This document shows, in pieces, positions 2,591 through 29,526 of a stretch of DNA of 29,844 nt. The translations under genes were made by a program, and so were the position numbers. The notes under the pieces are model-generated. The model did not search any database and had not been told where the DNA came from. It saw only the letters and a program-made list of their open reading frames with translations. Source of the DNA: a virus (taxonomy: Duplodnaviria > Heunggongvirae > Uroviricota > Caudoviricetes); the IMG/VR virus record IMGVR_UViG_2541047968_000011; one strand, given 5' to 3'. Positions within the stretch are counted from its first letter, which is position 1. Each line of letters starts with the position of its first letter.

Positions 2591-3343
2591 ATGAACCTTG
2601 AAGCTTTACCAAAATATTACTCCCCAAAATCTCCAAAATTGAGCGATGACGCACCGGCGACAGGCTTGGGTGGTTTAACAATTACAGATGTGATGGCTGC
2701 GCAGGGGATGGTGCAGTCGAAAGCACCGCTTGGGTTTGCCTTATTCCTGGCAAAAGTTGGTGTTCAGGATCCTCAGTTTGCGATTGAAGGTCTGCTCAAT
2801 TACGCGATGGCACTGGATAACCCGACATTGAACAAATTGAGTGAAGAAACCCGGCTACAGATCATTCCTTACCTTGTGAATTTTGCCTTTGCTGATTATT
2901 CCAGGTCTGCGGCAAGTAAGGCTCGCTGTGAGCGTTGTGCTGGTACTGGATTTCATAATGTATTGCGCGAAGTGGTGAAACACTCCAGAAGCGGGGAGTC
3001 TGTTATCAAGGAAGAGTGGGTGAAGGAACTATGTCAGCATTGTCATGGTAAGGGAGAAGTCAGCACAGCGTGCAGAGGGTGTAAGGGTAAAGGTATTGTC
3101 CTGGATGAAAAAAGAACCCGGCTTCATGGTACGCCTGTTTATAAGATTTGTGGGCGTTGCAATGGAAAACGGTTTAGTCGTTTACCAACCACACTGGCGC
3201 GGCATCATGTCCAGAAACTGGTACCAGACCTGACGGATTATCAGTGGTACAAAGGATATGCAGATGTCATTGATAAACTGGTTACAAAGTGCTGGCAGGA
3301 GGAATCTTACGCTGAAGCACAATTGAGAAAGGTGACAAGATAA
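2591..3343 (+). CDS. Q: Late-gene antitermination protein Q (phage 21/82-type, zinc-finger class)
   Basis: 250 aa with paired Cys clusters (CERCAGTG...CQHCHGKG...CRGCKGKG...CGRCNGK). Sits immediately upstream of the lysis region with GGAG 6 nt before the ATG. Confidence 0.8.
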   Translation: MNLEALPKYYSPKSPKLSDDAPATGLGGLTITDVMAAQGMVQSKAPLGFALFLAKVGVQDPQFAIEGLLNYAMALDNPTLNKLSEETRLQIIPYLVNFAFADYSRSAASKARCERCAGTGFHNVLREVVKHSRSGESVIKEEWVKELCQHCHGKGEVSTACRGCKGKGIVLDEKRTRLHGTPVYKICGRCNGKRFSRLPTTLARHHVQKLVPDLTDYQWYKGYADVIDKLVTKCWQEESYAEAQLRKVTR

Positions 3344-3374
3344 GTGATCTTCGCCGAAAATGGTGACATGATGC

Positions 3375-3403
3375 TTGCAATTTTCAAAAAACATGGATAA
3401 GAT
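3375..3403 (+). promoter_or_regulatory. Putative late promoter (pR'-equivalent): TTGCAA - 17 bp - TAAGAT
   Basis: Sigma70-like hexamers with a 17-bp spacer about 30 bp downstream of the Q stop, where lambdoid phages carry pR'/qut. Not verifiable without tools. Confidence 0.3.
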
Positions 3404-3451
3404 TTTCTCAACGATGGGCTTTATGTATCTGCCGTTGATAACCTTCAAGAA

Positions 3452-3473
3452 CTCGCCATTGAGCGGGTTTTTT
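3452..3473 (+). terminator. Weak intrinsic-terminator-like hairpin plus T6 (tR'-like candidate)
   Basis: A 5-bp stem (ctcgc/gcggg, one G-U pair) with a 6-nt loop followed by TTTTTT, downstream of the putative late promoter. Confidence 0.25.
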
Positions 3474-3545
3474 ATTGTGTAAAAACAGAATGACGGTATT
3501 AATTAGTAATATAATTATTCGACCATACAACTAGGGGTCGAAAAA

Positions 3546-4331
3546 ATGTATGTTTTTGAGTTAATCAAGCCAGGCAGTAATCTTAAGTTTGAAAACAGAG
3601 AGTTAGAATGGACGTTTAATAACTTATTATCCCATTTAGAAACTGCATTTTATGATGCTAATGTAGCATTAAATTTATTCGAACAGGAAAGAACTAAGAA
3701 TAACAGTAAATTCGATAATATTTCTCAGACATGGCAAGCTGATGTACAGAAACGACAAGCACTGGAAATGCTGGTTCGTAAAGAGTTTGGTTATCAACCT
3801 TATGAATATTCAGAACAGGTTTTTTCAGAGGTCGAGCTACGTCTAAAAAGAGAAAAATGGAATAACGGTGAATATCCGTTGGCTCATCAACACAGATTGA
3901 TCTTCTTACATGCAAAATCATTTCTCTACGCTTTGGATGCTATTGATAAATTTTTAAAGGTAATTTCAAAAGAAAATGGCGCGCCAGAGAACATTAAAAA
4001 ATTGCATGAACAGCTTTCTAAAGACTTTCCGGATTTAAGAAAGGTAAGGAATTCAGCTCAACACATGGAAGACAGAGTTCGTGGGCTTGGTGCAGAGAAA
4101 GAACCAAAGCCAATAAAACTCAAACCTGTAAATAATATTCATGTTGTTGCACCTCAGGGGGCATTGATGTTGAATAACTTATTCGGAACTAAATTTGGGT
4201 GCACTATGGCTGATGGCTATTATGGTGAAGTAGATATTTCGACAGAGTCTTTGGCAAAGTTGCAAAATTTAATCCAAAAAGTTTTTAATTCCTTCAGTTG
4301 GGAAGGACCAAAGCAACACCTTCCCCGATAA
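3546..4331 (+). CDS. Hypothetical cargo protein, 261 aa, with an R-x4-H (RNSAQH) HEPN-like motif
   Basis: Long ORF in visibly AT-rich DNA, preceded by a G-rich RBS and followed by a strong terminator. Predicted helical and charged; RNSAQH lies at residues 168-173. It occupies the Q-holin position that carries stx or other morons in lambdoid phages. Confidence 0.7.
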   Translation: MYVFELIKPGSNLKFENRELEWTFNNLLSHLETAFYDANVALNLFEQERTKNNSKFDNISQTWQADVQKRQALEMLVRKEFGYQPYEYSEQVFSEVELRLKREKWNNGEYPLAHQHRLIFLHAKSFLYALDAIDKFLKVISKENGAPENIKKLHEQLSKDFPDLRKVRNSAQHMEDRVRGLGAEKEPKPIKLKPVNNIHVVAPQGALMLNNLFGTKFGCTMADGYYGEVDISTESLAKLQNLIQKVFNSFSWEGPKQHLPR

Positions 4332-4350
4332 CATTTTCTTTTTTATTGAA

Positions 4351-4378
4351 AGCCGCCAAATAATTGGCGGCTTTTTTA
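4351..4378 (+). terminator. Rho-independent terminator
   Basis: Perfect 9-bp stem agccgccaa/ttggcggct with a 4-nt loop, followed by TTTTTT. Confidence 0.75.
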
Positions 4379-4420
4379 TTTCACAGTACCCGCAAATATC
4401 GCGAGGTGAGAGATGACGAA

Positions 4421-4747
4421 ATGCCTCATAACCCAAATACCTGGCTGGACTTGGTCCAGAGCTGGTGGCGTGGAGACACACCGCTGGGCGCAGTGATTAT
4501 GTCGATTGTTATGGCTGGTTTACGTATCGCCTATTTTGGCGGTGGTGGCGGCTGGAAGCGAAAAACACTCGAAATTCTACTCTGTGGCGCTCTGACGCTG
4601 ACTTTTGCATCCGCTCTTGAGTATGTCGGATGGCCTAAATCACTTTCTGTTGCCATTGGTGGTGGGGTGGGGCTGATCGGTGTCGATGCTATTCGTGGGG
4701 CTGCAATGCGAGTAATCGGTAACAAATTTGGTGGCTCTAAGGAGTAA
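4421..4747 (+). CDS. Holin, lambda S-like (class I, three predicted TM segments)
   Basis: Hydrophobic segments and a charged C-terminus with an overall pattern similar to lambda S; lies immediately upstream of the R endolysin. ATG at 4421 is chosen because the longer frame from 4364 would overlap the terminator hairpin. Confidence 0.7.
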   Translation: MPHNPNTWLDLVQSWWRGDTPLGAVIMSIVMAGLRIAYFGGGGGWKRKTLEILLCGALTLTFASALEYVGWPKSLSVAIGGGVGLIGVDAIRGAAMRVIGNKFGGSKE

Positions 4748-4750
4748 TTT

Positions 4751-5227
4751 ATGCAGGTACTAAATTCCCAGCGTAAAGCTTTCCTTGATATGGTGGCATG
4801 GTCAGAAGGAACGGATAACGGGCGACAACCGACACGTAACCACGGTTATGACGTTATTGTTGGTGGTGAACTGTTTACTGATTACTCCGATCATCCTCGC
4901 AAACTTGTCACGCTAAACTCCAAACTCAAATCAACAGCCGCCGGACGTTACCAGCTTCTTTCACGTTGGTGGGATGCTTACCGTAAACAGCTTGGTTTGA
5001 AAGACTTCTCCCCCAAAAGCCAGGACGCTGTGGCATTGCAGCAGATTAAAGAACGTGGCGCTTTACCGATGATTGATCGTGGTGATATTCGTCAGGCTAT
5101 CGACCGTTGCAGCAATATCTGGGCTTCGTTGCCGGGCGCTGGTTACGGTCAGTATGAACATAAAATTGGTGACCTGATTGCCAGGTTTAAAGAGGTTGGC
5201 GGGGTGGTAAATGAAGTTGAGCTATAA
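4751..5227 (+). CDS. R: Endolysin, lambda R-type lytic transglycosylase
   Basis: Near-identity over long stretches to lambda R as recalled (...NSQRKAFLDMVAWSEGTDNGRQPTRNHGYDVIVGGELFTDYSDHPRKLVTLN...). AAGGAG sits 6 nt upstream of the ATG. Confidence 0.93.
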   Translation: MQVLNSQRKAFLDMVAWSEGTDNGRQPTRNHGYDVIVGGELFTDYSDHPRKLVTLNSKLKSTAAGRYQLLSRWWDAYRKQLGLKDFSPKSQDAVALQQIKERGALPMIDRGDIRQAIDRCSNIWASLPGAGYGQYEHKIGDLIARFKEVGGVVNEVEL

Positions 5228-5672
5228 GCTAGTTATCGCTGCTTTCTTCGTTACTATTATTGGTTCTTTCATCTGGTCAGCGAATCATTACCACAATCAA
5301 GCCATTGAATACAAAAAGCAGCGCGACGAAAACGCTATGGCATTACATTCGGCTATGGCGACGATCTCTGATATGCAGAAGCGTCAACGTGACGTAGCTG
5401 AACTTGACGCCAGATACACAAAGGAGCTTGCTGATGCTAACACGACTCTCGAAAGTCTCCGTACTGATGTCTCTGCTGGTCGTAAGCGCTTGCAAATCGC
5501 CGCCACCTGTGCAAAGTCAACGACCGGAGCCAGCGGCATGGGCTATGGAGAAAGTCCAAGACTTACAGCTGATGCTGAACTCAATTATTACCGCCTCCGA
5601 AGTGGGATCGACAAGATAACTGCACAGGTTAACTACTTGCAGGAGTACATCAAGACACAGTGCCAGAAATGA
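5211..5672 (+). CDS. Rz: Spanin inner-membrane subunit Rz (i-spanin)
   Basis: N-terminal TM segment followed by coiled-coil, with lambda Rz-like stretches (...QRDVAELDARYTKELADA...). Start overlaps the end of R. Confidence 0.85.
   Translation: MKLSYKLVIAAFFVTIIGSFIWSANHYHNQAIEYKKQRDENAMALHSAMATISDMQKRQRDVAELDARYTKELADANTTLESLRTDVSAGRKRLQIAATCAKSTTGASGMGYGESPRLTADAELNYYRLRSGIDKITAQVNYLQEYIKTQCQK
5434..5619 (+). CDS. Rz1: Spanin outer-membrane lipoprotein subunit Rz1 (o-spanin), embedded in the +1 frame of Rz
   Basis: Embedded ORF with a lipoprotein signal and lipobox (MLTRLSKVSVLMSLLVVSAC) followed by a Pro-rich mature region, as in lambda Rz1. Confidence 0.75.
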   Translation: MLTRLSKVSVLMSLLVVSACKSPPPVQSQRPEPAAWAMEKVQDLQLMLNSIITASEVGSTR

Positions 5673-5744: not shown

Positions 5745-6608
5745 ATGGAAAGAGGTGTGGTATTTAGTGCATGCGAATTACTTAAAACCGAGGATGGAAA
5801 AGGCATCCGTACAGGTAAATGGATTAGTCAATTAGAAATAAACTATCTATGTCTTTATTGGGATAAACTAGTTTCACCCACTAATAATATTATACATACA
5901 GCATTAAATAACGAGGATGAATTAGAAAAATGTGGATTGCTAACCAGACCTGTATATAGACATCATGGTTGTTTTGATGGCCAATATATGGCTGATTTTT
6001 ATGCTGAAACTCATGCCAAAACAATAGATATACTTAGGCATGCGGATTCTTCTGTCGATTGGCGCATGCATTTTTTAAGTGACCAAATAAACTTGGTGCC
6101 TGAATTATCTAGAACCTCAGAAGTGATACGTTTTGAGCTAGCAAATTTATTACCCGTTCCCACAGAAGATGTGCACCTACATGATATTCTTGATTTCAAG
6201 GAAAGAAGAAAACCTGAATTAATCGCTTTACATGAATATCTTGATGAGCTTTACTTGGAAATAAAACGTTCTGGTGATATCAATCTTCAGAAAGCAAAAG
6301 CTCTTTCTAATCTTAAACAAGCAATAAAGGATATTGAACGCTTAAATTGTGAAGTGTGGAAAAGTCCAATAAAATTTAGCATCTCTACTTCCTTTGAGTT
6401 CGATTTTTCACAAATATTTACTCTGGCGGGAACTGTTTTATCTATGTCAGTAGATTATCCTTATAATGTTATTGGAGGGGTAAGTAGTTTTGCTTATTTT
6501 TTGGGAGGATGCATAAAAATAAAGCCACAATTTCAACAAGTGTTATCATTAGGTAATGATAAATTAGTTTACATAAGCAAAGGAAAATCGGAGGGTATTA
6601 TTTCCTGA
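5745..6608 (+). CDS. Hypothetical cargo protein, 287 aa, no recognised family
   Basis: Long ORF in AT-rich DNA with AGGAG 9 nt upstream of the ATG. It sits between the lysis cassette and the HNH/terminase genes. Confidence 0.65.
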   Translation: MERGVVFSACELLKTEDGKGIRTGKWISQLEINYLCLYWDKLVSPTNNIIHTALNNEDELEKCGLLTRPVYRHHGCFDGQYMADFYAETHAKTIDILRHADSSVDWRMHFLSDQINLVPELSRTSEVIRFELANLLPVPTEDVHLHDILDFKERRKPELIALHEYLDELYLEIKRSGDINLQKAKALSNLKQAIKDIERLNCEVWKSPIKFSISTSFEFDFSQIFTLAGTVLSMSVDYPYNVIGGVSSFAYFLGGCIKIKPQFQQVLSLGNDKLVYISKGKSEGIIS

Positions 6609-6684
6609 TTTTTGATTCTCATAATCAATGAATGTTTTTTGTGAATATACTTATTTTAACCATATAAATAATCAAGGTAATAAA

Positions 6685-7035
6685 GTGCCTCCTCGTATCC
6701 CGAAAGCCTGCCGTGCTCGAGGTTGCCGTAATACCACCACAGACCCGTCAGGCTACTGCGAAAGCCACAAAAGCGAAGGCTGGAAGCAATACAAGCCAGG
6801 CCAGTCCCGACACCAGCGCGGTTATGGTGCGAAATGGGATTTTATCCGTGAACGTGTGCTCAAGCGTGACAAAGGCCTGTGTCAGTTGTGTTTGCGTGCC
6901 GGTGTGGTGCGCGAGGCGAAAACCGTTGACCACATCATCCCTAAAGCACATGGCGGCACTGATGCCGACAGTAATCTGCAGAGTCTGTGCTGGCCGTGTC
7001 ATAAGGCGAAGACGGCCCGTGAACGGTTGAAGTAA
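6685..7035 (+). CDS. HNH endonuclease (terminase-associated)
   Basis: Cys/His-rich motifs (...CRARGC...C..H...DHIIPKAHGGTD...N...CWPCH) and position directly upstream of terS. GTG at 6685 is preferred over the AT-rich extension from 6628. Confidence 0.78.
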   Translation: MPPRIPKACRARGCRNTTTDPSGYCESHKSEGWKQYKPGQSRHQRGYGAKWDFIRERVLKRDKGLCQLCLRAGVVREAKTVDHIIPKAHGGTDADSNLQSLCWPCHKAKTARERLK

Positions 7036-23432: not shown

Positions 23433-24007
23433 CAAACGATGATTACATCCGTCTGTTGTCGGCACTGTTGCCACCCGGTCCGGCGTGGTCAGCCAGAGAT
23501 CCGGCGATTGCCGGTGCGGCACCGTCATTAACCCGCGTTCATCAGCGTGCGGATGCCCTGATGCGGGAGCTGGATCCGCGCACCACCACTGAACTGATAA
23601 ATCGCTGGGAGCGTCTGTGCGGTCTGCCGGATGAATGTATTCCCGCAGGGACACAGACCCTTCGCCAGCGTCAGCAACGGCTGGATGCGAAGGTTAACCT
23701 GGCGGGCGGCATCAACGAGAATTTTTATCTTGCACAGCTTGCTGCCCTGGGCAGACCAGACGCTACCATCACGCGATACGACAAAAGCACGTTCACCTGC
23801 TCATCGGCCTGTACTGACGCGGTGAATGCGCCGGAATGGCTGTATTACTGGCAGGTCAACATGCCAGCCGCCACAAACACCACCTGGATGACATGTGGCG
23901 ATCCCTGTGATTCCGCGCTGCGTATCTGGGGTGACACCGTTGTCGAGTGTGTGCTTAACAAACTCTGCCCGTCGCATACCTACGTAATTTTTAAATATCC
24001 GGAGTAA
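23423..24007 (+). CDS. Tail protein (Mu gp48 / DUF2313, YmfQ-like)
   Basis: 194 aa directly upstream of the tail-fibre gene, as ymfQ is upstream of stfP in e14 (from memory). Confidence 0.72.
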
Positions 24008-24010
24008 TCC

Positions 24011-24643
24011 ATGCATCGTATAGACACGAAAACCGCGCAGAAGGATAAGTTCGGCGCGGGTAAGAACGGTTTTACCCGTGGTAACCCCCAGACTGGCACG
24101 CCTGCCACCGATCTGGATGATGACTACTTTGACATGTTGCAGGAAGAACTTTGTAGCGTTGTTGAGGCATCCGGTGCCAGTCTGGAGAAGGCGCGGCACG
24201 ACCAGCTGCTTACCGCGCTTCGTGCGCTGCTGTTAAGCCGCAAGAATCCGTTTGGCGATATCAAATCGGATGGCACGGTGAAAACGGCTCTCGAAAACCT
24301 TGGTTTGGGAGAAGCCAGATATGTCATTCAGCGAGGAGCTAATGTCAATGGTGCATGGATACGCTGGTCAGATGGTGCAATAGAAGTATTTGGAACTGGT
24401 GGTTCCAATGATAATGGGCTGGCTAAAGTCGTTTATCCAATTGCTCTACCTAAGCTTTCACGTTTTATCAGCATAGCGGAAAGAATAAGAACAGATTACG
24501 AGGCCACACCTAATAACGTTCACGTTTCAATGATCGTGGATGACCAGGTCAGTAATACAGGTTTTTATGTCCGCTGCCAGATGTACGACGGAAGACCATC
24601 AACAAGTGCTTTTTCCTGGAGAGTTTATTGTGCGCCTGTTTAA
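24011..24643 (+). CDS. Side tail fibre protein (constant N-terminus plus currently expressed variable C-terminus)
   Basis: N-terminus [26 protein letters not shown]... is the conserved tail-fibre N-terminal domain. A 26-bp invertase crossover site lies inside the gene at codons about 93-101. Confidence 0.8.
24288..24313. other. Invertase crossover site, left (gix/hix/pix-like), CTCTCGAAAACCTTGGTTTGGGAGAA
   Basis: Matches the hix/gix family pattern (..GAAAACC nn GGTTT..) as recalled. Its right half is repeated in inverted orientation at 26711-26737. Confidence 0.6.
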
Positions 24644-24827
24644 TCCTGTTACTTTGACTGAAGTAATCCCCGGTCTTCATGACGTGACCGGGGCTGTGGA
24701 ATTACCAGAAGATAACTGGTTTTTTACTATGACAGAAATTCCTCAGGGCATGGAGCTAACAATTAATGAGAAAGGGGAACCAATATTGATTGAGGTTAAT
24801 CAGTCTCAGGGAAAGCAGGCCAAATAA
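24630..24827 (+). CDS. Putative short tail-fibre assembly/chaperone protein (65 aa)
   Basis: GTG start with GGAG 7 nt upstream, directly after the fibre gene. It is short for a Tfa, and its 3' end overlaps the convergent tfa' fragment, so this call is uncertain. Confidence 0.35.
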
Positions 24828-25101
24828 TATCAGGCGCGGTGCTGGTATCTGTTGCCGTCACCGCGTCAATGTAATCCAGCACGGCGTTAAGCCGGGTTGT
24901 TTCTGCCTGCATCAGCTTCCGTCCGGCCTGTAATTTCAGCTGAATCAGACTGATGGAAGCCATTGCAGCATCAATCAGTGACTGACGCTGTGCTTCTGCC
25001 GTGTCTACTGCGGCGCTATGCTGTGCCTCAGTATCGGTCACCCATTTCTCACCATCCCATTTATCGTATGGTGTTAACGGGGCGATAGTTGTGGTATTTT
25101 C
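24796..25101 (-). pseudogene. Tail-fibre assembly gene tfa' (alternative orientation), C-terminal fragment separated from its 5' part by IS26
   Basis: Minus-strand translation ...ENTTTIAPLTPYDKWDGEKWVTDTEAQ...[16 protein letters not shown] matches the conserved Tfa C-terminus. The frame is open right up to the IS26 boundary. Confidence 0.75.
25094..25101. repeat. IS26 target-site duplication (left copy), GTATTTTC
   Basis: Identical 8 bp abut both ends of the IS. Confidence 0.85.
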
Positions 25102-25921
25102 GGCACTGTTGCAAAGTTAGCGATGAGGCAGCCTTTTGTCTTATTCAAAGGCCTTACATTTCAAAAACTCTGCTTACCAGGCGCATTTCGCCCAGGGGAT
25201 CACCATAATAAAATGCTGAGGCCTGGCCTTTGCGTAGTGCACGCATCACCTCAATACCTTTGATGGTGGCGTAAGCCGTCTTCATGGATTTAAATCCCAG
25301 CGTGGCGTTGATTATCCGTTTCAGTTTGCCATGATCGCATTCAATCACGTTGTTCCGGTACTTAATCTGTCGGTGTTCAACGTCAGACGGGCACCGGCCT
25401 TCGCGTTTGAGCAGAGCAAGCGCGCGACCATAGGCGGGCGCTTTATCCGTGTTGATGAATCGTGGGATCTGCCACTTCTTCACGTTGTTGAGGATTTTAC
25501 CCAGAAACCGGTATGCAGCTTTGCTGTTACGACGGGAGGAGAGATAAAAATCGACAGTGCGGCCCCGGCTGTCGACGGCCCGGTACAGATACGCCCAGCG
25601 GCCATTGACCTTCACGTAGGTTTCATCCATGTGCCACGGGCAAAGATCGGAAGGGTTACGCCAGTACCAGCGCAGCCGTTTTTCCATTTCAGGCGCATAA
25701 CGCTGAACCCAGCGGTAAATCGTGGAGTGATCGACATTCACTCCGCGTTCAGCCAGCATCTCCTGCAGCTCACGGTAACTGATGCCGTATTTGCAGTACC
25801 AGCGTACGGCCCACAGAATGATGTCACGCTGAAAATGCCGGCCTTTGAATGGGTTCATGTGCAGCTCCATCAGCAAAAGGGGATGATAAGTTTATCACCA
25901 CCGACTATTTGCAACAGTGCC
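25102..25921 (-). mobile_element. IS26 (IS6 family) insertion sequence, complete, 820 bp
   Basis: Perfect 14-bp terminal inverted repeats GGCACTGTTGCAAA at 25102-25115 and TTTGCAACAGTGCC at 25908-25921. Length is exactly 820 bp, it encodes Tnp26, and it is flanked by 8-bp direct repeats. Confidence 0.95.
25154..25858 (-). CDS. tnpA: IS26 transposase Tnp26
   Basis: 234-aa translation MNPFKGRHFQRDIILWAVRWYCKYGISYRELQEMLAERGVNVDHSTIYRWVQRYAPEMEK... is recognisable as the IS26/IS6-family transposase. Confidence 0.95.
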   Translation of the reverse strand: MNPFKGRHFQRDIILWAVRWYCKYGISYRELQEMLAERGVNVDHSTIYRWVQRYAPEMEKRLRWYWRNPSDLCPWHMDETYVKVNGRWAYLYRAVDSRGRTVDFYLSSRRNSKAAYRFLGKILNNVKKWQIPRFINTDKAPAYGRALALLKREGRCPSDVEHRQIKYRNNVIECDHGKLKRIINATLGFKSMKTAYATIKGIEVMRALRKGQASAFYYGDPLGEMRLVSRVFEM

Positions 25922-25929
25922 GTATTTTC
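25922..25929. repeat. IS26 target-site duplication (right copy), GTATTTTC
   Basis: Identical to 25094-25101. Confidence 0.85.
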
Positions 25930-26229
25930 AGGGTAATCACCCGGAGCTGTGATTTCTTTTGACTCTCCAGTTTTGGTGCTATAGACGATTTCACCGCGAT
26001 GGTCTGGCACATATTCCCATGAGTTAAAATTTGCAGAACGACAGATAGCATAACCCACCTTATATGTGCCAGGGGCATCTAAACAGGAATATGCAGGAAT
26101 ACCGACACCAATGGCAAGATATTCAGTTGAAGCTGAAATATATTCCTGCGTCTCACTATCATAGTTATAAACGGTAATATCCCCCGACTTTGTAGCAATA
26201 AGCTCACTATTTAATATTGCTTTATCCAT
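25922..26229 (-). pseudogene. Tail-fibre assembly gene tfa', N-terminal fragment interrupted by IS26
   Basis: Minus-strand ORF starting at 26229 (MDKAILNSELIATKSGDITVYNYD...HRGEIVYSTKTGESKEITAPGDYPENTALL) runs into IS26. Removing IS26 plus one duplication copy restores a continuous 201-codon Tfa-like frame. Confidence 0.75.
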
Positions 26230-26736
26230 TATGCTGCTCTCACGATATAGTTAAATGCAATGTTTCGAGGGCGATTCTCTGATGCTGTTGGTACAACCCT
26301 GGATGCATCAAAACTGAATCCTGTGTAAGGGGTATTTTTTGTTTCATATGTGCCTAGGTTATTATAGATATTTCGCGTAGCTTGAGATGCTAAGGCAAAA
26401 GCACCAGTACCAGTCTGTAACCTGAAAGTTGCTGTATCAATGGTGCCTTTAACTTCATTTATAAAGCCTGTTATATTCCGAATGGTATCTCCCTGTGACG
26501 AAAGCAAGCTACGGTTAGTATCAATCCCTCTTCCATCATCCCAGCCACGAATAAACTCACCGCGTAAATCAGGCAATTTATTTGTCGGGTAAACCTTTGC
26601 CAGTTCCGGGTATTCTTCAGCAGAAAAAGCCGCCCCGTTGCATTTCAGCCAGCCTGTTGGCGGAGTGGCGGAAGGCCACGGAACAGGCACGCCAACGGGT
26701 AATGCCGAACCTTCTCCCAAACCAACGTTTATGAAA
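26229..26736 (-). CDS. Alternative tail-fibre C-terminal segment (inverted orientation, no independent start)
   Basis: Minus-strand frame encodes ...VGLGEGSALPVGVPVPWPSATPPTGWLKCNGAAFSAEEYPELAKVYP... It begins at the right crossover site and would join the constant fibre N-terminus in frame at LGLGE/VGLGEG after inversion. Confidence 0.7.
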
Positions 26737-26737
26737 A
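26711..26737. other. Invertase crossover site, right (inverted copy); reverse complement TTTTCATAAACGTTGGTTTGGGAGAAG
   Basis: The right half GGTTTGGGAGAAG is identical to the left site in inverted orientation. It lies just upstream of the invertase gene, as in the Gin/Cin/Pin systems. Confidence 0.6.
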
Positions 26738-26791
26738 TGCAGAAATAACGATCAAATGGCATCATTCCTGCTTTTGTCAGGGAGATCTACC

Positions 26792-27346
26792 ATGCTTATT
26801 GGCTATGTACGTGTGTCAACAAATGACCAGAACACAGATCTACAGCGTAATGCGCTGAACTGTGCAGGATGCGAGCTGATTTTTGAAGACAAGATAAGCG
26901 GTACAAAGTCCGAAAGGCCGGGACTGAAAAAACTGCTCAGGACATTATCGGAAGGTGACACTCTGGTTGTCTGGAAGCTGGATCGGCTGGGGCGTAGTAT
27001 GCGGCATCTTGTCGTGCTGGTGGAGGAGTTGCGCGAACGAGGCATCAACTTTCGTAGTCTGACGGATTCAATTGATACCAGCACACCAATGGGACGCTTT
27101 TTCTTTCATGTGATGGGTGCCCTGGCTGAAATGGAGCGTGAACTGATTGTTGAACGAACAAAAGCTGGACTGGAAGCTGCTCGCGCACAGGGACGAATTG
27201 GTGGACGTCGCCCCAAACTTACACCAGAACAATGGGAGCAGGCCGGACGATTAATTGCAGCAGGAATTCCTCGCCAGAAGGTAGCGATCATCTATGATAT
27301 TGGTGTATCGACTTTGTATAAGAGGTTTCCAGCCAGGATTATATAA
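26792..27346 (+). CDS. pin: Serine-recombinase DNA invertase (Pin/Gin/Hin/Cin family)
   Basis: 184 aa with N-terminus MLIGYVRVSTNDQNTDLQRNAL... (catalytic Ser in the VRVST context) and a C-terminal HTH. GGAG RBS; adjacent to the invertible fibre segment. Confidence 0.92.
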   Translation: MLIGYVRVSTNDQNTDLQRNALNCAGCELIFEDKISGTKSERPGLKKLLRTLSEGDTLVVWKLDRLGRSMRHLVVLVEELRERGINFRSLTDSIDTSTPMGRFFFHVMGALAEMERELIVERTKAGLEAARAQGRIGGRRPKLTPEQWEQAGRLIAAGIPRQKVAIIYDIGVSTLYKRFPARII

Positions 27347-27542
27347 AACCGCAGACACGCCGTATGCAAGACGTGCTGCGGTTGGCTGATGCACTTTCGA
27401 GAGTGTATGTATTGAATTATTTCCAGCCGTTACTGATTTTACGTATTTTTTGTATGAGAGGAGTTGCACCACCTCTTAAGCATAATTTGTTAGAATCATG
27501 GCAGCACAATAGCCATATATCCAATATAAAATACTTAACCTT

Positions 27543-28442
27543 CTAATCATTATGGAGTATTTGATCGCCGTATGGCCAGCCATTTTCCCCAGGAAGGGTC
27601 ATACCTAACATTGGCATAATACTAAGTTGTCCAATGGTAAATCCTAGAGCACTTGTATTACTGATTCCGGCATAGGTCATATCAAGGGGGTTAGACTCTG
27701 AGCTGGACATAAAAAGATTTCTTGTGCCAATTCTATTCGCCATTGAGAACTGAATATGCCCACCAATTGTATTTACGGTGTCCTGAGATATCCAGTTGTT
27801 TAACGCGATAAATGGCGCCCGCCACCAGTTAAGCGTGCCATTCTCAAAACGCCCCCTCGTCATCTCAATATCTTCCCGAAACTGCTGCTTTCTGTCTCCC
27901 AAGACTACCGGGGTACCTGTTGTCAGGTCAAGGCAGTCCTCAATTACAAGATTAGTGGGGTTTGATGGGGTGTTGTAGATCTTAATGATTTTATGTACCT
28001 GTGTTCTGAAACAGAATCCGTAAATAATCATCTCCGTTGCTACAGAACGGGGAAAAAACTGGCCAATATCCAGTATAAATTTTTCCGCGATTCCCTTTGT
28101 TAAAACTGCAATTTCATAAAGACTCGGGTAACTATCATAAGTCAACTCCGGCTGCTGAACATCATAATAATTAACTTCATGTAATGAAGATAATGATACG
28201 GCAAGTAACTCCTTCACATTTATACCGATCATTGTTCCTCCTGCAAAGCCGAAACCAAACTCCATAATTTTTTCCGGAGATAGACGGTATATGTCATTGG
28301 AGCGAATAACTGATACCGGAATCGAGAATAGTTTAGGACAGTGATTTGTCATTACACTTTCATGCTGGGTGATTCTTGAGTCGCTTACGGCCCAGATACT
28401 TTCCCCTTCTTCCCTGTTTAGCCAGCAGGCTATTGCTGTCAT
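27543..28442 (-). CDS. Hypothetical cargo protein (299 aa from the RBS-supported ATG; the frame is open to 28580), no recognised family
   Basis: Long minus-strand ORF in AT-rich DNA. A strong SD (AAGGGGG) sits 7 nt upstream of the ATG at 28442. It lies immediately downstream of pin. Confidence 0.6.
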   Translation of the reverse strand: MTAIACWLNREEGESIWAVSDSRITQHESVMTNHCPKLFSIPVSVIRSNDIYRLSPEKIMEFGFGFAGGTMIGINVKELLAVSLSSLHEVNYYDVQQPELTYDSYPSLYEIAVLTKGIAEKFILDIGQFFPRSVATEMIIYGFCFRTQVHKIIKIYNTPSNPTNLVIEDCLDLTTGTPVVLGDRKQQFREDIEMTRGRFENGTLNWWRAPFIALNNWISQDTVNTIGGHIQFSMANRIGTRNLFMSSSESNPLDMTYAGISNTSALGFTIGQLSIMPMLGMTLPGENGWPYGDQILHND

Positions 28443-28923
28443 TGAAAACCCCCTTTTAAGTAAAAAAATCAGATTCAGATAGTGCATACATAATTTAGTC
28501 AAGTCATCTCTTTTAAGACGCATTGAGAAATGGTTGCTCAAGGTGCGCCAGTGAACGCGCACGAAAATAACTTCTTGCATTTCCCATTACACTCTGACTT
28601 TAGGGCCGCGTTAGATTTTAACATGGTGGCCGTGCATCCATTTAAATTGGTAATCTGGAGAATGAGTAACGCTGAATAGATTAACAATCTATGCGACTAA
28701 CGGCCCTTAAAAGCGCAGCTCATAACATCGAATTTTACCAGTTTAGTCATTTTTAAAAAGTGCCCGAAAAATGTTGTCCACGATTTGTGCTCTACGTCCC
28801 ATCTTGACCTACTCCCTGATAATTCACTCAGAAGGCGGTTAGCAATGTCCGTTAAGTGCTCACAACGGACATTCAGCCCACTAAATCCGACCGTGTCGCT
28901 CAATATGCGGACAGGTTGTAGTG

Positions 28924-29526
28924 CTAACTGCATTGTAGCTGTGAGATTTCACCATCGATGGCTTCTATAACCTGTTTATAGCGGAGCATGACCTCATCAT
29001 GAATCATCATTAATCCGCGGCCGTACTCTGTGGCTAGGATTGTGTATCTTTTCAGGTGTGCAAGATGTTCTTTGTTGCCAGTAATGTCACTTGCAACCTG
29101 CGTGGAGTCCAGCCGTTCGATAAGCGCATTATTGCCGCGATAGGAATCAATTAGGCTTCTTGCGCTTGTATAAAAAGCCACAATTTTTGAGAGTGTTTCT
29201 CTATGAACTTCAGGTAGGGATGCCGAGTTGGCTTCATAGAACGTGAAGTAGTTTTGAGTAATGGGGAAAATGTTATCGAACGGTGAGTTCCGGTCGTATT
29301 TTTCGATTTCTTCTGCCATTCTGGCCTGATACAGTTTAATCAGTGAGTCTATTTCCTCTCTGACACCCAATAGCGTTGTTATACGCTTCTCTCTGGCCGC
29401 TGTTGCCTGCTGTTTTGCCTGCTGTTTCACCTGAGTTGTCACTCCTATCATCGTGAAACAGCCACCTAAAAGAGCTGCTAAAAATGCGGAGATGAGATCT
29501 GAATATTCGTGCCAGAAGGTTAGCAT
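28924..29526 (-). CDS. Hypothetical membrane-anchored coiled-coil protein (200 aa)
   Basis: Minus-strand ORF with an N-terminal hydrophobic segment (LISAFLAALLGGCFTMIGV) followed by a charged helical region. AT-rich; no convincing SD, so the start is uncertain. Confidence 0.45.
   Translation of the reverse strand: MLTFWHEYSDLISAFLAALLGGCFTMIGVTTQVKQQAKQQATAAREKRITTLLGVREEIDSLIKLYQARMAEEIEKYDRNSPFDNIFPITQNYFTFYEANSASLPEVHRETLSKIVAFYTSARSLIDSYRGNNALIERLDSTQVASDITGNKEHLAHLKRYTILATEYGRGLMMIHDEVMLRYKQVIEAIDGEISQLQCS

Follow-up and report, generated by a model that had tools for sequence, protein, structure and literature searches.

The DNA stretch filed as IMG/VR record IMGVR_UViG_2541047968_000011 (29,844 nt, referred to in its full length as the window) very probably carries an e14-type P segment, that is, an invertible tail-fiber module of the Hin/Gin/Cin/Pin class, where the late operon of an SfV/SfII-like prophage of Escherichia coli type ends. 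The module would be flipped by the serine invertase Pin together with the host protein Fis, and its chaperone gene has been broken by an insertion sequence (IS), IS26-v1. Nothing in the window sequence contradicts this identification. It draws on the crossover sites, the family of Pin, the reading frames and the occurrence of both orientations among relatives, and it upholds a sequence-only reading of the same stretch, in which a Pin-type invertible tail-fiber segment resembling those of e14 and of Mu (the G segment) had been proposed. The Pin/e14 P-segment switch as such is already known, reportedly since 1985 through Plasterk and van de Putte; it has been characterized experimentally, has RefSeq annotations (pinE, tfaE) and occurs in most E. 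coli genomes. What the present analysis adds are the IS26-v1 copy that disables one arm of the switch, a small open reading frame (ORF) that is not a Tfa gene, and comparative evidence of inversion at identical sites. The module matters little as a discovery, and its practical value lies in annotation.

Two crossover sites bound the segment

A repeat search of the window returned inverted arms at 24295-24314 and 26711-26730 that are 20 nt long, 95% complementary and 2,396 nt apart. They overlap two 26-bp sites, which we call siteL and siteR (Table 1). The central dinucleotide reads TT in siteL and AA in siteR on the plus strand, which is the same AA core in opposite orientation; in inverted register the two sites agree at 21 of 26 positions, and their inner 12-bp half-sites are identical (TTCTCCCAAACC). 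The consensus TTCTCNNAAACCNNGGTTTNNGAGAA, with up to three mismatches allowed, matches the 29.8 kb of the window at exactly these two places, and 100 dinucleotide-preserving shuffles gave no match; because there are just two matches we expect a simple two-state switch rather than a multi-site shufflon. The inverted pair of 26-bp sites claimed in the sequence-only reading is thereby confirmed, as is the placement of the left one (24288-24313) on the LGLGE codons of the fiber gene, since siteL falls on the ENLGLGE codons of the gene at 24011-24643. The right one had been given as 26711-26737, which is one nucleotide too long, siteR being 26712-26737.

The sites were then compared with those of the invertase-site family, a check that had been named together with the original claim, by taking the gix and cix sequences from the Mu and P1 records and aligning them on the crossover. 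The Mu record gives the G-segment boundary 26-mer as TTATCCAAAACC-TC-GGTTTACAGGAA, together with an inverted partner, and the P1 record annotates cixL and cixR with their exact crossover positions. All half-sites of the window, Mu and P1 read TT(A/C)TCNNAAACC in this alignment. The P1 cix core is AA, as in the window, and the inner half-site of cix (TTCTCTTAAACC) differs from that of the window at two bases. In both register and half-sites the two sites thus fit Mu gix and P1 cix, and as 26-mers both are identical to those of the K-12-type e14 locus, which we identified by mcrA and the icd remnant next to pinE. Two 26-bp sites with a 2-bp core are what is expected of crossover sites of the Din family (Hin/Gin/Cin/Pin), and both are present here. 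SiteL recurs unchanged in CH458/CH423, ECOR29, STEC1575, CP178707 and NADC1036, and siteR in every e14-type relative retrieved. The published 16-nt inverted repeats of the e14 P segment, TTGGTTTGGGAGAAGG and CCTTCTCCCAAACCAA (PMC12529663), are found in the window with 15/16 matches on the left and 16/16 on the right, and the 1,797 bp given in that paper is the exact distance between these repeats in the K-12-type locus.

Inversion would exchange the tip of the tail fiber

The fiber gene (24011-24643, plus strand) encodes 210 amino acids (aa), 200 of which are identical in the annotated protein of CP178707. Residues 1-105 match tail-fiber families of PHROG (phrog_1396, E 8e-56), and the constant N-terminal part, Sc, lies outside the invertible segment except for its half-site. 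The current variable tip, Sv+, is a divergent one: it matches Pfam Gp53-like_C over profile positions 2-80 of 84 with E 0.0055 and 17.6 bits, which is below the 24.9-bit cut-off. When the segment was inverted in silico by cutting and rejoining at the core dinucleotides, both sites were left unchanged and an uninterrupted ORF of 261 aa was formed, in which the 101 shared residues are followed in frame by 160 new ones, those of the silent tip Sv'. This predicted fusion is identical at 260 of 261 residues to an annotated ‘phage tail protein’ of ECOR29, in which the segment is inverted. Measured from core to core, the segment spans 2,424 bp, or 1,596 bp without IS26. It had been claimed from the sequence alone that inversion joins the constant N-terminus in frame to the alternative C-terminus and that the shorter tip is the one in expressed orientation; both statements hold (109 aa now as against 160 aa after the flip). 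The accompanying estimate of about 117 aa for the variable domain does not, because the domain has 109 aa and 117 is obtained only by counting from the first base of siteL.

DNA bounded by the same sites is found in both orientations

Of 5,426 complete E. coli genomes, 3,475 match the module. The IS-free region was searched against this collection in both its present and its in silico inverted orientation. The present orientation has one unbroken colinear match in CP178707 (96.1% identity), and the inverted orientation has one each in ECOR29 and STEC1575 (96.2%); all three carry the same two 26-bp sites. A sister module, again with identical sites, is found in two clonal isolates from one hospital, CH458 and CH423, which have near-identical chromosomes (4,740,891 and 4,740,904 bp). 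Over 8,969 bp their loci agree in every base except for the 1,881 bp between the sites, which are an exact reverse complement with no mismatch. In these genomes the breakpoints of natural inversion lie within the sites. This is consistent with published work: the K-12 P segment occurs as a reproducible mixture of orientations in clonal cultures, in which inversion has been measured (PMC4272514), and inversion of the e14 P segment has likewise been measured; of 562 deposited E. coli genomes, 33% had the segment inverted (PMC12529663). Among relatives with identical sites, the segment is thus found in both orientations, from which we infer that switching would also take place in the lysogen from which the window derives.

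For annotation, this has the consequence that the minus-strand ‘phage tail protein’ ORF and the 210-aa ‘hypothetical protein’ are to be read as alternative ends of one fiber gene, and that assemblies of this locus can legitimately differ in orientation. Two further observations concern the same problem. At the E. coli CH423 locus (3112-3897), PGAP calls the fused fiber gene of the inverted state a pseudogene (‘missing C-terminus’), yet it is an intact ORF of 262 aa; and the silent cassette is everywhere annotated as a free-standing ‘phage tail protein’ that begins in the pin spacer. Both are systematic annotation artefacts of invertible segments.

Pin and the proposed mechanism of inversion

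The invertase that had been noted beside the segment is indeed a full-length serine invertase of the Gin/Cin class. Pin matches Resolvase PF00239 (E 1e-51), HTH_7 (E 1e-14) and the DNA invertase family phrog_125 (E 8e-98), its best solved structure is Gin 3uj3 (E 2e-95, residues 1-182), and it is 94% identical to K-12-type PinE, 83% to P1 Cin and 79% to Mu Gin. It keeps the catalytic Ser9 (GYVRVSTNDQ), the long invariant blocks and every residue that is invariant among Pin, Cin and Gin, all of which places it among the small serine recombinases of the Din family (Hin/Gin/Cin/Pin). Homology also points to a putative recombinational enhancer within pin. The P1 record annotates nt 19-90 of cin as the ‘enhancer of Cin-mediated C-segment inversion’, to which pin aligns without a gap, and a 15-mer that fits the strict Fis consensus (GNNYRNNWNNYRNNC) lies at 26862-26876, which corresponds to nt 71-85 in pin, cin and gin alike.

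We propose the following sequence of events. Dimers of Pin would bind the two 26-bp sites, and host Fis, bound within the 5' portion of pin to an enhancer that lies some 120 bp away from siteR, would assemble with them into an invertasome. By analogy with Gin and Hin, Pin would then cut both sites at the central AA/TT through Ser9, in a concerted double-strand cleavage that leaves 2-nt overhangs, whereupon the subunits would rotate by 180 degrees and the DNA would be religated, so that the 2,424 bp between the cores are flipped. Cleavage, rotation and religation are established steps for Hin and Gin. The promoter, the ribosome-binding site and the first 101 codons of the fiber gene would stay outside the segment throughout. 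In the present state the late operon would express Sc-Sv+ with its 109-aa Gp53-like tip, followed by the 65-aa ORF, and the minus-strand genes would be carried along without a promoter. After the flip, the operon would express Sc-Sv' with its 160-aa Collar tip, followed by a truncated TfaE and a co-oriented IS26.

IS26-v1 has broken the silent assembly gene

The description of the segment in the sequence-only reading was incomplete in that it overlooked the 820-bp IS26-v1 that splits tfa'. The element (25102-25921) has the length, the terminal repeats, the single DDE transposase and the 8-bp duplication of the IS6/IS26 family, and it is flanked by the direct target duplication GTATTTTC at 25094-25101 and 25922-25929. 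Its transposase scores 278 bits against NCBIfam transpos_IS6 (cut-off 125 bits) and matches Pfam DDE_Tnp_IS240 with E 6e-49. At the nucleotide level, 817 of 820 positions (99.6%) are identical to annotated IS26, and the three differences include two adjacent ones that result in the substitution G184N in Tnp26. This substitution is the published definition of IS26-v1, which the literature distinguishes from standard IS26 (PMC9412624); in size, terminal repeats, 8-bp duplication and G184N, the element in the window and IS26-v1 are the same, and no differences were found.

Removal of IS26 and one copy of the duplication restores a tfa' ORF of 201 aa that is 98% identical to K-12-type TfaE and matches Caudo_TAP (PF02413) with E 7e-31, so that the restored minus-strand gene would belong to the Caudo_TAP family (Tfa, lambda gpK/Tfa, Mu U). 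IS26-v1 has arrived by simple insertion with an 8-bp duplication, and it has inactivated tfa': as the gene now stands, residues 103-201 are cut off from its start and most of the Caudo_TAP domain is lost. The two short minus-strand ORFs that flank IS26 should accordingly be annotated as one broken tfaE. Tfa proteins are needed for the folding of their cognate fibers. Since tfa' is broken, defective fibers are predicted for the flipped state, in which the alternative fiber would be made but not the assembly protein that belongs to it; a compatible Tfa from another prophage could make up for this. The insertion can be seen as a small natural experiment on the disabling of one arm of a bistable host-range switch.

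The same insertion, looked for in order to see whether IS-bearing copies occur in both orientations, was absent from all 5,426 complete E. coli genomes. The sole high-coverage match to the IS-bearing query, CP107720, was rejected, as it is a different prophage in which IS26 truncates a fiber cassette. In that genome (E. coli 2021CK-01361, NZ_CP107720, 3500-5500), IS26 abuts a truncated silent fiber cassette in a module of invertible type, which has two convergent tfa genes, and no invertase gene is left; it is an independent case of IS26 damaging a fiber switch. That IS26-v1 is found in a prophage on the chromosome points to a strain that has IS26-rich resistance plasmids.

The small ORF behind the Gp53-like tip

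The plus-strand ORF of 65 aa that follows Sv+ had been described as Tfa-like. This does not stand, because the ORF resembles Tfa by position only and shows no Caudo_TAP similarity. It has no Pfam match even at E up to 10, no match in NCBIfam or PADLOC and no BLASTP match to TfaP or TfaE; the one family that it matches is phrog_5400 (E 1e-25), which is listed under ‘unknown function’. A database search returned 113 homologous proteins of 46-91 aa, mostly 57-65 aa, from the Enterobacterales (Escherichia, Enterobacter, Salmonella, Citrobacter, Cronobacter, Yersinia and Erwinia), and none of the 113 has a Pfam domain. They share the strongly conserved motif MRLFNP...E.I.G.H...A..L...WFF...P (in the family of the 65-aa ORF, MRLFNP...DNWFF...GEP). 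We also considered whether the ORF is a truncated Tfa, given that the phrog_5400 profile has 145 positions and is matched at 1-66 only, and rejected this, as the short form is the norm among the homologues.

The AlphaFold2 model of the protein is all-beta with a pLDDT of 78, and a Foldseek search with it against PDB and BFVD gave nothing at E <= 0.001. The top viral fold match, a 60-aa ‘tail fiber assembly protein’ of Pantoea phage LIMEzero, is not significant (E 0.075, TM 0.37).

More can be learned from the neighborhood of the homologues. The Cronobacter homologue stands directly 3' of a 227-aa fiber-like gene at the end of a baseplate cluster, and a Yersinia homologue (57 aa) follows a Gp53-like_C fiber gene in a tail cluster of siphovirus type with gpJ. 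The family occurs in tail clusters of both myovirus and siphovirus type, and in at least one other invertible module, which is found in Yersinia. In this invertible-looking module (Yersinia enterocolitica, 3181-5486), the fiber gene and the 57-aa ORF face a 74-aa small ORF, a Gp53-like_C cassette and a 189-aa Resolvase/HTH_7 invertase. The module contains neither a match to the pix consensus nor a long inverted repeat, and because no pix-type site is present the invertase there should use other sites. From linkage, as distinct from homology, the 65-aa protein is probably a constant companion of tips of the Gp53-like type and could plausibly assist their assembly, which makes it a modest lead for work on fiber assembly. 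As a separate observation, the 3' ends of the convergent 65-aa ORF (plus strand) and tfa' (minus strand) overlap by 32 nt (24796-24827), and those of K-12-type tfaP and tfaE by 29 nt; this suggests that the cassette boundary is fixed at that point during cassette exchange.

Weighing of the evidence

Several observations speak against a Pin switch that works as proposed. Only one of the two Fis sites expected in pin fits the strict consensus, the second being a G-N13-C match only. Over nt 19-90, pin and cin are 75% identical, as compared with 72% over the rest of the gene, which is no signal beyond coding constraint. A scan of 23900-27500 for promoters and terminators gave no more sites than shuffled sequences did, and no sigma-70 promoter for pin was found above chance or, more particularly, in the 54-bp spacer upstream of the gene. 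Moreover, a single assembled sequence of this lysogen cannot show switching there. Finally, the extra 828 bp that came with IS26 may affect the frequency of inversion; nevertheless, no block is expected from them, because natural segments of this class measure about 1-4 kb (Mu G about 3 kb, P1 C 4.26 kb).

Could the inverted repeat have nothing to do with recombination at all? Both of its arms lie within coding sequence for the same peptide, (N)LGLGE or VGLGE, and it might thus have arisen by chance or from coding, in that homologous fiber genes share the sequence that encodes LGLGE. However, the match runs on into the non-homologous outer half-sites, which are patterned like those of cix and gix, shuffled sequences contain no match to the consensus, and the natural inversions break within these very 26 bp. 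With the half-site pattern and the flip between CH458 and CH423 at hand, we consider this explanation already refuted and the chance that it holds vanishingly small. A different kind of doubt arises from the failure to detect a promoter of pin above chance, from the destruction of tfa' and from the NZ_CP107720 prophage, in which IS26 has truncated a comparable module and the invertase is gone. Taken together they would fit a relic in which sites and pin are intact and the switch is nonetheless dead, either because pin is silent or because IS26 disturbs the geometry of the invertasome; the fiber would then be locked in its Gp53-like form and the minus-strand cassettes would be decaying, with IS26 as the first sign. 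On the other hand, Pin is full length and has lost none of the residues that Pin, Cin and Gin hold invariant, Sv' is still an intact ORF, and the sites match letter for letter those at which DNA inverts between clonal isolates and in cultures of K-12 (PMC4272514, PMC12529663). In addition, longer segments than this one invert in Mu and P1, and in K-12 Pin paralogues can act in trans, the segment there being flipped by PinQ, PinR and PinE alike (PMC12529663). We therefore regard a dead switch as distinctly improbable and hold to a functional Pin-type module.

The third possibility concerns whom the switch serves. The ORF on the pin side (26229-26765, minus strand) has a leader, MMPFDRYFCIFINVGLGE, whose start outside siteR does not move with the segment and which runs on into the cassette then next to pin: it would give a product of 178 aa at present and, once the segment is inverted, a 127-aa chimera that contains the Gp53-like tip. 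Its counterpart in K-12 is ‘stfE’/‘StfE2’, and there the chimera StfE2 has been reported to block or reduce adsorption of T2 (PMC12529663). It is therefore conceivable that the pin-side ORF is expressed in the lysogen and that one of its chimeras blocks the adsorption of other phages, so that the switch would serve the host instead of, or besides, setting the host range of the phage. The effect of the K-12 equivalent on T2, the flipping of the segment by all three invertases there, and the leader ORF, which together with its start codons is conserved in K-12-type e14, can be cited in support. This conservation is, however, not independent evidence, as the leader is partly dictated by the sequence of the site. 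The Gp53-like tip differs from the K-12 sequence and the collar-tip ORF is just 61% identical to K-12 StfE, so that receptor mimicry cannot be transferred from one to the other. No promoter emerged from the scan mentioned above, and, unlike e14, the prophage described here has a complete SfV-type set of morphogenesis genes, for which the classical host-range role is the simpler explanation. We thus think a host-serving switch unlikely. Equally speculative, and to be taken as a long shot, is a scheme in which several of the above threads are joined: the one-sided knockout of the chaperone would turn the module into an ON/OFF phase switch of the virion (one orientation adsorbing, the other yielding fiber-defective particles), the chimeric pin-side ORFs (the counterparts of K-12 StfE and StfE2) would provide the lysogen with an invertible anti-phage surface block, and, separately, the family of the 65-aa ORF would represent undescribed miniature assembly factors for Gp53-like tips. 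For the region as a whole we retain the e14-type host-range module with one broken arm.

Features of the module and of the surrounding prophage

The coordinates of all features are collected in Table 1.

Table 1. Features of the invertible module and its right flank (positions in the window)
Feature	Positions	Strand	Description
Constant N-terminal part Sc of the short tail-fiber gene	24011-24313	+	101 aa, ends ...ENLGLGE; shared prefix of the current and inverted proteins
Left crossover site siteL (pixL-type)	24288-24313	read on +	CTCTCGAAAACCTTGGTTTGGGAGAA = CTCTCGAAAACC-TT-GGTTTGGGAGAA; core 24300-24301
Current variable fiber tip Sv+	24314-24643	+	109 aa, divergent Gp53-like_C-type domain
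65-aa ORF	24630-24827	+	GTG start, overlaps the fiber stop codon; small conserved accessory protein
tfa' 3' fragment (silent tfaE-like assembly gene)	24796-25101	-	includes duplication copy 25094-25101; ORF fragment 24796-25041
IS26-v1	25102-25921	-	820 bp, perfect 14-bp terminal inverted repeats GGCACTGTTGCAAA
tnp26 transposase gene	25154-25858	-	234 aa, IS6-family
tfa' 5' fragment	25922-26229	-	102 native residues + 17 IS-derived = 119-aa ORF 25870-26229
Silent alternative tip Sv'	26229-26711	-	160 aa, phage tail Collar domain PF07484, E 4e-15
Right crossover site siteR (pixR-type)	26712-26737	read on +	TTCTCCCAAACCAACGTTTATGAAAA = TTCTCCCAAACC-AA-CGTTTATGAAAA; core 26724-26725
Start of pin-side ORF	26738-26765	-	start codons and first residues of leader MMPFDRYFCIFINVGLGE, continuing into siteR
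pin, serine DNA invertase	26792-27346	+	184 aa, Resolvase catalytic domain + HTH_7; 54-bp spacer from siteR
Putative recombinational enhancer (Fis-binding region)	26810-26881	within pin 5' end	alignment to P1 cin nt 19-90
Two cargo ORFs right of pin	27543-28580 and 28924-29526	-	345 aa and 200 aa, between pin and prophage end

Positions 1-24300 of the window share 97-98% identity with the Shigella phages SfII, SfI, SfIV and SfV as well as with Escherichia phage vB_EcoM-689R6, and genes for RusA, antiterminator Q, holin, Rz, HNH and terminase are found upstream of the module. This is therefore a complete late region of SfV type (lambdoid early genes, Mu-like tail), with a fiber gene that ends in an e14-type module, as opposed to the 15-kb e14 remnant. 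Between the lysis and terminase genes (5745-7035), a 287-aa protein with DUF6236 and a 135-aa HNH endonuclease are encoded.

The two cargo ORFs beyond pin have a low content of guanine plus cytosine (0.39-0.46, as against 0.55-0.59 in the backbone). Neither has a usable match in Pfam, NCBIfam, PHROG or PADLOC, and the 200-aa ORF has only a sub-threshold PADLOC match to ZorB/MotB. Seven complete E. coli genomes also have them, at 98.3-98.8% identity; in one of the seven, NADC1036, intS and a tRNA-Arg gene directly follow. At this position K-12 e14 has mcrA and several other strains have a LEM-3-like GIY-YIG nuclease, and the two ORFs may constitute an uncharacterized moron or a defence pair.

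Comparison with known systems

The nearest known system is the e14 P segment of K-12, which has the same 26-bp sites, a Pin that is 94% identical and, once IS26 has been removed, a TfaE that is 98% identical. The gene order is also the same (ymfQ - Sc/Sv - accessory - tfaE(-) - Sv'(-) - pin), including the leader ORF on the pin side. The two differ in that K-12 has the StfP tip and TfaP where the window has another Gp53-like tip and the 65-aa non-Tfa ORF, and in the K-12 StfE ORF, which shares 61% of its residues with the collar-tip ORF of the window. The repeats are 2,396 bp apart in the window and 1,797 bp in e14, the window segment being longer because of IS26. Furthermore, e14 is a 15-kb defective prophage remnant at icd with mcrA beside pinE, whereas the window holds a full prophage of SfV/SfII type with two unknown genes in that place, and its nearest relative with this cargo is located at intS/tRNA-Arg. 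The window is thus not the e14 element itself; rather, it carries the same module in a different prophage.

The G segment of Mu with Gin shows the same layout, with Sc outside, Sv-U and U'-Sv' convergent inside and the invertase just past the right site. Gin is 79% identical to Pin and the half-sites are of the same family; however, the gix core is GA and not AA, the G segment of about 3 kb has much larger tips, and both of its accessory genes are Tfa genes of Caudo_TAP type. The C segment of P1 with Cin (and Min of p15B) is comparable in that Cin is 83% identical to Pin, cix has the AA core and the half-sites are nearly identical (TTCTCTTAAACC compared with TTCTCCCAAACC), and the annotated enhancer falls within the 5' portion of cin, at the nucleotides that align with nt 19-90 of pin. 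In P1, on the other hand, cin flanks the segment on the opposite side and has cixL at its 3' end, and the C segment measures 4.26 kb, while p15B has multiple sites in the manner of a shufflon where the window has two.

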